Source of the DNA: Escherichia coli
GTDB lineage: Bacteria > Pseudomonadota > Gammaproteobacteria > Enterobacterales > Enterobacteriaceae
Length of the DNA: 64,000 nt
Reading direction: 5' to 3' (one strand)
Assembly (NCBI RefSeq): GCF_003334335.1
Contig: NZ_QOWQ01000022.1
Shown here: positions 34,111 through 55,020 of the stretch, in pieces
Numbering within the stretch: position 1 is the first letter of the stretch
Layout of the letters: every line of letters begins with the position of its first letter
The notes under the pieces: model-generated
Seen by the model: only the letters and a program-made list of their open reading frames with translations
What the model was told of the DNA's origin: nothing
The model's database searches: none
Program-made: the position numbers and the translations under genes

Positions 34111-34210
34111 TGCCGGATGCGGCACGAGCGCCTTATCCGGCCTACAAAATCGTGCAAATTCAAAATATTGCAGGGGACGCGTAGGCCTGATAAGCGTAGC
34201 GCATCAGGCA
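34111..34210. repeat. REP/BIME-type extragenic palindromic element (two inverted REP units) between gloC and aspC
   Basis: GCCGGATGCGGCACGAGCGCCTTATCCGGCCTAC and inverted GCGTAGGCCTGATAAGCGTAGCGCATCAGGCA. Confidence 0.8.
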
Positions 34211-53196: not shown

Positions 53197-53899
53197 TACG
53201 TGGAACAGATTGGCGCTCTTGATTTTCGCCGTTTTATCGCTGCTGGTGGCGGGTGAATTGCGGGCAGGAGTGGTGGTCGGCGGAACGCGATTTATCTTTC
53301 CGGCAGACAGAGAATCGATATCTATTTTACTGACTAATACCAGTCAGGAATCCTGGCTTATTAACAGTAAAATCAACCGCCCAACGCGTTGGGCCGGGGG
53401 GGAAGCGTCGACAGTGCCAGCACCATTACTGGCCGCTCCGCCACTTATTCTCCTGAAGCCCGGTACTACAGGCACGTTGCGCTTGCTGAGAACGGAAAGC
53501 GACATCTTGCCTGTGGATCGCGAAACGCTATTTGAGTTAAGCATTGCCAGCGTGCCATCCGGCAAAGTTGAAAATCAGAGCGTAAAAGTGGCGATGCGCT
53601 CGGTATTTAAACTGTTCTGGCGACCCGAAGGTTTGCCGGGCGACCCGCTGGAAGCTTATCAACAATTACGCTGGACACGGAATTCGCAGGGTGTACAACT
53701 CACTAACCCAACGCCTTACTACATTAACCTGATTCAGGTGAGCGTAAATGGTAAAGCGTTAAGTAATGCGGGAGTTGTGCCGCCTAAAAGCCAGCGTCAG
53801 ACAAGCTGGTGTCAGGCAATCGCACCGTGTCATGTCGCCTGGCGGGCGATAAATGATTACGGCGGGTTGAGTGCAAAGAAGGAGCAAAATCTGCCCTGA
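53189..53899 (+). CDS. ycbF: second periplasmic fimbrial chaperone-like protein, about 236 aa
   Basis: ORF 53162..53899(+) trimmed to MTNTWNRLALLIF; PapD-like. Confidence 0.8.
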   Translation: MTNTWNRLALLIFAVLSLLVAGELRAGVVVGGTRFIFPADRESISILLTNTSQESWLINSKINRPTRWAGGEASTVPAPLLAAPPLILLKPGTTGTLRLLRTESDILPVDRETLFELSIASVPSGKVENQSVKVAMRSVFKLFWRPEGLPGDPLEAYQQLRWTRNSQGVQLTNPTPYYINLIQVSVNGKALSNAGVVPPKSQRQTSWCQAIAPCHVAWRAINDYGGLSAKKEQNLP

Positions 53900-54009
53900 A
53901 ACAGGTTCGGAAAACGTTTGCGTTTTTTTTGCCGCAGGTCAATTCCCTTTTGGTCCGAACTCGCACATAATACGCCCCCGGTTTGCACACCGGGAATCCA
54001 GGAGAGTTC

Positions 54010-55020
54010 ATGTACTACCCCTTCGTTCGTAAAGCCCTTTTCCAGCTCGATCCAGAGCGCGCTCATGAGTTTACTTTTCAGCAATTACGCCGTATTACAG
54101 GAACGCCGTTTGAAGCACTGGTGCGGCAGAAAGTGCCTGCGAAACCTGTTAACTGCATGGGCCTGACGTTTAAAAATCCGCTTGGTCTGGCAGCCGGTCT
54201 TGATAAAGACGGGGAGTGCATTGACGCGTTAGGCGCGATGGGATTTGGATCGATCGAGATCGGTACCGTCACGCCACGTCCACAGCCAGGTAATGACAAG
54301 CCGCGTCTCTTTCGTCTGGTAGATGCCGAAGGTTTGATCAACCGTATGGGCTTTAATAATCTTGGCGTTGATAACCTCGTAGAGAACGTAAAAAAGGCCC
54401 ATTATGACGGCGTCCTGGGTATTAACATCGGCAAAAATAAAGATACGCCAGTGGAGCAGGGCAAAGATGACTATCTGATTTGTATGGAAAAAATCTATGC
54501 CTATGCGGGATATATCGCCATCAATATTTCATCGCCGAATACCCCAGGATTACGCACGCTGCAATATGGTGAAGCGCTGGATGATCTCTTAACCGCGATT
54601 AAAAATAAGCAAAATGATTTGCAAGCGATGCACCATAAATATGTGCCGATCGCAGTGAAGATCGCGCCGGATCTTTCTGAAGAAGAATTGATCCAGGTTG
54701 CCGATAGTTTAGTTCGCCATAATATTGATGGCGTTATTGCAACCAATACCACACTCGATCGTTCTCTTGTTCAGGGAATGAAAAATTGCGATCAAACCGG
54801 TGGCTTAAGTGGTCGTCCGCTTCAGTTAAAAAGCACCGAAATTATTCGCCGCTTGTCACTGGAATTAAACGGTCGCTTACCGATCATCGGTGTTGGCGGC
54901 ATCGACTCGGTTATCGCTGCGCGTGAAAAGATTGCTGCGGGTGCCTCACTGGTGCAAATTTATTCTGGTTTTATTTTTAAAGGTCCGCCGCTGATTAAAG
55001 AAATCGTTACCCATATCTAA
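54010..55020 (+). CDS. pyrD: dihydroorotate dehydrogenase (quinone), 336 aa
   Basis: ORF 53983..55020(+) trimmed to [23 protein letters not shown] at 54001-54005. Confidence 0.95.

Follow-up and report, generated by a model that had tools for sequence, protein, structure and literature searches.

The window, the whole 64,000-nucleotide stretch of DNA analysed here, is a piece of Escherichia coli chromosome that carries elf/ycb fimbrial genes, pyrD and zapC. A 601-base query taken around a short GC-rich hairpin 5' of pyrD found a match in all 5426 of 5426 complete E. coli genomes, with the gene order ycbF (fimbrial chaperone), pyrD, zapC, ycbX, rlmKL in the matched genomes. The gene that begins at 54010 is annotated pyrD, for quinone-dependent dihydroorotate dehydrogenase, in every one of them (5426/5426), and its ATG corresponds to position 1004768 of NC_000913.3. 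The hairpin lies 78 nt downstream of the ycbF stop, and its 3' end is 15 nt upstream of the pyrD ATG. Features of the locus, in order along the window, are as follows.

53908..53923, + strand: PurR operator CGGAAAACGTTTGCGT, identical to the pyrD PurR ChIP-chip motif at NC_000913.2 1003889-1003904 (PMC3159470)
53929..53942, + strand: FNR-type site TTGCCGCAGGTCAA, 7 of 10 matches to TTGAT-N4-ATCAA, centred 41.5 nt before C 53977
53942..54015, + strand: match to Rfam family RF02373 (PyrD_leader), 97.9 bits, model positions 1-74 of 74
53943..53948, + strand: probable weak -35 element TTCCCT, inferred, with a 17-bp spacer; position deduced from the -10
53966..53971, + strand: -10 hexamer CATAAT; ATAAT is invariant in all hairpin-type leaders
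53977..53981, + strand: start-site cluster C6 C7 C8 G9 G10, counted from the last -10 base
53977..53994, + strand: leader hairpin, made of CCCGGT (53977-53982), loop TTGCAC (53983-53988) and ACCGGG (53989-53994)
53995..53999, + strand: five-base spacer AATCC between stem and Shine-Dalgarno
54000..54004, + strand: Shine-Dalgarno AGGAG; GGAG is invariant across all leaders compared
54010..55020, + strand: pyrD coding sequence, 336 aa, stop codon included, with ATG at 54010-54012; homologues carry PF01180

From the -10 hexamer to the start cluster the sequence reads CATAAT-ACGCC-CCCGG, so that the 5' arm of the stem begins with the five bases at positions 6-10. A first-pass annotation, made from the sequence without database searches, had described the hairpin CCCGGT-TTGCAC-ACCGGG at 53977-53994, the AGGAG and the ATG at 54010, and the sequence is just as it described; the gap of 6 nt that it gave between stem and AGGAG is actually one of 5 nt.

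A search of the whole window against Rfam gave the RF02373 match an E-value of 1.5e-15. The score far exceeds the gathering score of 47, and the match is one of only two in the 64-kb window to stand above threshold. The consensus structure of the family is the same 6-bp stem, with no non-canonical marks in the cmscan alignment. By its score above gathering, its 6-bp stem and its position directly 5' of pyrD the element belongs to RF02373, a family whose model also spans -35/-10 promoter DNA that lies outside the RNA. Compared with the pyrD leader of Salmonella Typhimurium and E. coli, it has the same sequence, the same 6-bp stem and the same position before pyrD, with no substantive difference. 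The hairpin is the known, Rfam-curated pyrD leader, and element, mechanism and family have all been described before. As a discovery it carries little weight; it is usable as a positive control, because a true regulatory RNA and its correct mechanism were recognised from sequence alone, with no tools.

Taken by itself the hairpin is statistically unremarkable. The window has 23 perfect 6-bp stems with at least five G/C pairs and a loop of 3-8 nt, where dinucleotide shuffles give 14.7±4.3, and the 54-56 nt leader folds no better than its shuffles (z about -0.9). Since neither the bare hairpin count nor the fold z is exceptional, the case for the element rests on its position and its conservation, which lift it above chance. 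The commonness of such stems, the short distance from the ycbF stop and a terminator-like site that a scan reports on the minus strand all fit a reading of the hairpin as intrinsic terminator of the ycbF/elf fimbrial operon, or else as a functionless chance GC stem; we give this reading next to no likelihood. On the + strand the stem is followed by GGGAATCCAGG and not by a U-tract, and a search for intrinsic terminators found no + strand site, with AATCCAGG standing 3' of the stem. The minus-strand site has no convergent downstream gene to use it. Across species and E. coli lineages, moreover, the leader precedes pyrD even where pepN or a divergent flavodoxin-like gene, and not ycbF, lies upstream. 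The missing + strand U-tract, together with the constant association with pyrD across differing upstream genes, excludes a terminator, and a chance stem is excluded by conservation and the Rfam score.

Conservation within the species is close to complete, with the 56 nt of 53960-54015 identical in 5395 of the 5426 E. coli genomes. A scan of species-representative genomes yielded 80 Enterobacteriaceae pyrD loci, at 91-99% protein identity, and from the -10 to the ATG these 80 species are almost invariant; the Salmonella enterica arizonae leader (96.7 bits) is identical over that interval. Sequence is free to vary in the -35/-10 spacer and in the five bases that separate the -10 from CCC, but the length of each is constant. 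Variants of the loop include TTTGCACA, TCTGCACA, TTTGCAA, TTTGCTA, TTTGCCA and TTTGCAC, and in several genera the loop is 1 nt shorter, with the CCCGG/CCGGG core retained. One E. coli urine isolate (UID2404240040, positions 61-70) has lost a base from the spacer between stem and Shine-Dalgarno, AATCC becoming AATC with a 4-nt gap, and the same one-base deletion occurs independently in Pluralibacter gergoviae.

With E. coli PyrD as the protein query, the search yielded only E. coli variants, hence no outgroups. Yersinia PyrD used as the probe led to ten further loci in Yersiniaceae, Hafniaceae and Pectobacteriaceae. The layout of ATAAT, 5 nt, CCC, hairpin and GGAG is present also in Serratia, Chimaeribacter, Nissabacter, Buttiauxella, Rahnella, Hafnia and Rouxiella, with scores to RF02373 that run from 82.5 bits in Serratia down to 47.3 in Rahnella and 46.4 in Hafnia. 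It is absent from the roughly 130 nt compared upstream of pyrD in Yersinia, Pectobacterium and Brenneria, and the leaders of these three genera and of Rouxiella gave no RF02373 match. Because Yersinia, Pectobacterium and Brenneria have neither an ATAAT-CCC-hairpin leader nor an Rfam match, their pyrD must be under other control or be preceded by an unrecognised leader.

Among 25 distinct leaders, pairing holds in 94% of the cells of the stem alignment; sliding the 3' partners lowers this to 14-55%. One stem pair is changed on both sides, and the others are either invariant or, for outer pairs, lost. The double change is that of Buttiauxella, whose CCCAGT/ACTGGG embodies one compensatory replacement of G-C by A-U, while Rahnella and Hafnia have a stem reduced to 4 bp around a 9-nt loop. 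Covariation support is real but thin, as it comes from a single compensatory change with the remaining pairs invariant or lost.

The same comparisons bear on whether the inverted repeat could act as DNA, that is, as a palindromic operator at +1 to +18 on which a dimeric repressor would block initiation or promoter escape. Over the start region CCCGGT-N6-ACCGGG is indeed perfectly palindromic as DNA, it is strongly conserved, and the Buttiauxella double change preserves the symmetry of the DNA as well as the pairing of the RNA. Half-site spacing, however, is 1 nt less (5 nt) in Kosakonia, Pluralibacter, Serratia and others, and the Rahnella and Hafnia form departs further still. Spacing that varies by genus is tolerated by an RNA hairpin and usually not by a dimer operator, which makes the DNA reading highly improbable. 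Moreover, PurR and FNR are the only pyrD promoter regulators in the literature consulted (PMC3159470, PMC3688515), and the sites of both lie upstream; the regulation is ascribed to start-site choice, with no pyrimidine-responsive repressor (PMC6524683, PMC7818426).

For the leader read as RNA, the choice of start base decides how much of the 5' arm is transcribed. The isolated leader was folded from each candidate start base from 53977 to 53981, with the following hairpin free energies.

start at 53977 (C6): -10.3 kcal/mol
start at 53978 (C7): -7.2 kcal/mol
start at 53979 (C8): -3.9 kcal/mol
start at 53980 (G9): -1.9 kcal/mol
start at 53981 (G10): 0 kcal/mol

Stem-pair probabilities in the ensemble of a longer mRNA follow suit, at about 1.0 from C6 and C7, about 0.7 from C8, 0.28 from G9 and 0.01 from G10. 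The minimum free energy (MFE) and centroid folds both contain the stem, with pair probabilities of 0.89-1.0 from the C starts. C starts thus retain the 5' arm, and G starts truncate it, with loss of the stem. The same gradient of stem loss with start base was found in all 12 leader types folded (12 species), and in 25 of 25 distinct leaders CCC occupies positions 6-8 at a fixed distance from the -10 and is followed by a purine.

A published genome-wide map of transcription start sites (TSS; Kim et al. 2012) gives a single start for pyrD, at NC_000913.2 1003961, supported by 421 reads and leaving a 5' UTR of 30 nt; the upstream sequence listed for it ends ...CATAATACGCCCCCG. This position is window 53980, that is, G9, the first G of the cluster, 9 nt past the last -10 base. 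The map covers one growth condition, mid-log cells in M9 glucose without pyrimidines, for which a G start is the start expected. For pyrC the same study places the TSS at the equivalent G after CC. The first-pass annotation had reckoned a single start downstream of the hairpin as evidence against its reading; the mapped G falls within the 5' arm, and hence not downstream of the hairpin.

According to published accounts, it is the CTP/GTP ratio that controls pyrC and pyrD in both E. coli and S. Typhimurium, by way of the initiating nucleotide: RNAs begun at C, with extra C's at the 5' end, form a stable 5' hairpin and are translated poorly, and pyrC and pyrD transcripts begun at G are unable to make the 5' hairpin (PMC6524683, PMC7818426; both cite Frick 1990, Sorensen 1993, Wilson 1992 and Turnbough & Switzer 2008). 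Hairpin mutants lose pyrD regulation, as shown in the literature for Salmonella.

The pyrD leader of this window is very probably the effector of such a CTP/GTP-sensitive start-site switch. The anatomy, the start-dependent folding, the conservation and the Rfam membership are observed here, and the TSS at G is published; the shift of start with the nucleotide pool and its translational consequence are taken from the literature. In the mechanism as we envisage it, RNA polymerase at the weak, FNR-activated and PurR-repressed pyrD promoter could initiate at any of five bases 6-10 nt past the -10. With CTP high relative to GTP it would start at a C (53977-53979), the whole 5' arm would enter the RNA, and a stable 5'-terminal hairpin would form; such an RNA, its stem ending 5 nt before the Shine-Dalgarno, would be poorly translated. 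With CTP low it would start at a G (53980 or 53981), the three C's would be absent, no stem would form, and the mRNA would be translated. The sensor would then be RNA polymerase, in its selection of the initiating nucleotide, and the hairpin the effector. The first-pass proposal of a nucleotide-sensitive start-site switch of the pyrC/pyrD type is thus borne out by the literature, Rfam, the anatomy, the start-by-start folding and the TSS; its suggestion that the hairpin is the sensing structure gives way to the role of effector.

How the hairpin would lower translation is less straightforward. In the predicted folds the AGGAG has an unpaired probability of 0.21-0.30 for every start and for each of three 3' limits, and pairing of the stem with the Shine-Dalgarno is absent from every MFE and centroid fold, whatever the start. 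The first-pass annotation had advised folding the alternative leaders to see whether the hairpin extends into the Shine-Dalgarno; the stem never reaches AGGAG, and an extension of this kind, absent in all predicted folds, is ruled out. Because AGGAG accessibility is independent of the start base, equilibrium folding alone predicts no translational repression, and the hairpin would need to act by a steric or kinetic route, of a kind that folding does not reveal.

A stem at the extreme 5' end of an mRNA is a geometry known to be protective, and the 5' stem-loop of ompA does protect its message. Stems from C starts stand at the very 5' end, with 0-2 unpaired bases, and predicted Shine-Dalgarno accessibility is the same for all starts, so the hairpin might be regarded as mainly a 5'-terminal stabiliser of the ompA sort, which would counter 5'-end-dependent decay by RppH and RNase E and raise expression. 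We consider this quite unlikely. The sign of the effect in the literature is the opposite, hairpin-bearing transcripts being the repressed form (PMC6524683, PMC7818426), and when cells grow without pyrimidines and need pyrD, transcription starts, on the published map, at the G whose use abolishes the stem. Some stabilisation could still accompany repression.

Under the start-site switch, the hairpin likely hinders the 30S subunit sterically, by removing single-stranded RNA just 5' of the Shine-Dalgarno and not by pairing with it. The geometry suggests this route, since the 30S, with a stable stem occupying the extreme 5' end, would find only five unpaired bases before the Shine-Dalgarno. Because 5 nt separate the stem from the Shine-Dalgarno and accessibility is equal for all starts, one may also entertain, as a speculative and rather doubtful proposal, that the regulated unit exceeds the hairpin, with a 5' hairpin acting on a 30S standby or platform site together with a constrained early coding region, instead of sequestering the ribosome-binding site. 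How a stem without Shine-Dalgarno contact lowers translation is of modest interest. The conserved CCC at the start would also offer the possibility of CTP-dependent slippage.

The start of the coding region shows unusual constraint at silent sites (81 sequences; codons 2-20 = 54013-54069). Synonymous-codon entropy in pyrD is 0.18 bits over codons 2-8, 0.47 bits over codons 9-20 and 1.10 bits over the rest, and the corresponding values for the neighbouring gene zapC, used as a control, are 0.59, 0.61 and 1.19 bits. Codons 2-8 form the 7-codon window of lowest entropy in pyrD, and Leu13 is encoded by CTC in all 80 of the 80 sequences that have Leu there. RNAalifold pairs the GGAGA of the Shine-Dalgarno with the UUUCC of codons 10-12 in 21 of 21 diverse leaders, the only variation being alternation between G-C and G-U, and ensemble folding showed no effect of the start base. 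We considered a three-part switch in which a freed 3' arm, through its GGGAA, would compete with GGAGA for UUUCC. Ensemble calculations give this idea no support: GGGAA and UUUCC pair with a probability of 0.07 or less, and the Shine-Dalgarno is unpaired with a probability of 0.24-0.30 whatever the start and the 3' limit (three limits). The cause of the silent-site constraint in the first 20 codons of pyrD is a second matter of modest interest.

Upstream of the transcribed region, the PurR box of the pyrD promoter is a 16-bp sequence bound in vivo, as recorded by the ChIP-chip motif (PMC3159470), whose coordinates we converted to the window by way of the pyrD ATG. A PurR-box-like sequence lies 5' of pyrD in related species also, at a distance that varies. 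In 85 of 88 leaders the FNR-type site stands at one fixed place, 38 nt before ATAAT, and matches the consensus at 7 or more of its 10 positions. Myers et al. 2013 (PMC3688515) include pyrD among the direct targets of FNR activation and report a ChIP-seq peak there and, when oxygen is absent, a higher occupancy by sigma-70; a site near -41.5 with published FNR occupancy marks a class II FNR promoter. The block AGGTCAATTCCCTTT around the -35 is almost invariant and contains the FNR-type site, and a near-invariant block TTGCCGCAGGTCAATTCCCTTT, at 53929-53951, overlaps the -35 region and includes the TTG-N8-TCAA of the same site. Since the FNR-type site lies within it and pyrD is published as directly FNR-activated, this conserved block is accounted for by an FNR site that is already known. 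A simple sigma-70 consensus scan found no promoter pair at pyrD, a null result that is uninformative at an activator-dependent promoter with a weak -35.

The elf/ycb fimbrial flank (the region 53700-53907) is variable, with a boundary that seems to fall at the pyrD promoter, as judged from lower genome coverage and from unrelated sequence in two genomes. Coverage of at least 80% of 53700-54300 is found in only 4067 of the 5426 E. coli genomes, with the leader covered in all. In one E. coli locus (L006) and one of E. albertii (L007) the sequence left of the PurR box is unrelated, and between the PurR box and the FNR site these two have GCTATTTCTTGCC and GCTATTTATTGCC, respectively, in place of GCGTTTTTTTTGCC.

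A close relative of this system is the E. coli pyrC leader (RF02372; Wilson et al. 1992), which like that of pyrD has a PurR box, a -10 and C-C-G-G starts that form the 5' arm of a hairpin. The K-12 pyrC leader matches Rfam RF02372; the pyrC and pyrD leaders are separate Rfam families. The pyrC hairpin has arms UCCGGC and GCCGGA around a loop of 15 nt, and its TSS in M9 is at G, as for pyrD. The two differ where stem and ribosome-binding site meet: the pyrC 3' arm GCCGGA overlaps the GGAG taken as Shine-Dalgarno, whereas the pyrD stem ends 5 nt before AGGAG. The predicted unpaired probability of the pyrC GGAG falls from about 0.3 to about 0.1 with the full 6-bp stem, and that of pyrD is unchanged. 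Further parallels are the UTP-sensitive reiterative transcription and start-site switching of pyrBI, codBA and upp-uraA in E. coli and the CTP-sensitive case of pyrG in Bacillus subtilis. As at pyrD, RNA polymerase senses nucleotide pools at initiation in these systems, with no repressor protein; unlike pyrD, they work by homopolymer slippage, with abortion or antitermination as the output, and have no translation-lowering 5' hairpin.

A metagenome scan with GFGFIEVGTVTP returned only PyrD homologues of at most 63% identity, whose upstream regions are without the element; at that distance they are unusable for the leader alignment. Two of the metagenomic pyrD homologues (60-62% identity; L133, 7931-8000 on the minus strand, and L098, 12240-12299) have TAAAAT directly before GCCCCG...CGGGGC and 6-7 T, ending 15-20 nt before the ATG and standing just 3' of a long co-directional ORF. 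To judge from its sequence this arrangement looks like an upstream-gene terminator with a -10-like hexamer abutting the stem. Four of the 5429 places that match the pyrD leader in E. coli genomes are on plasmid-labelled records and may be extra copies or assembly artefacts.

Elsewhere in the window, 34146-34188 (+ strand) has an Rfam match to the sRNA ES036 (CssrF), at 53 bits. Occurrences of the 251 bases around this match, which adjoin aspC, number a median of 21 per E. coli genome, and because of this recurrence the match probably lies within a REP-type repeated element and does not mark a unique sRNA gene.
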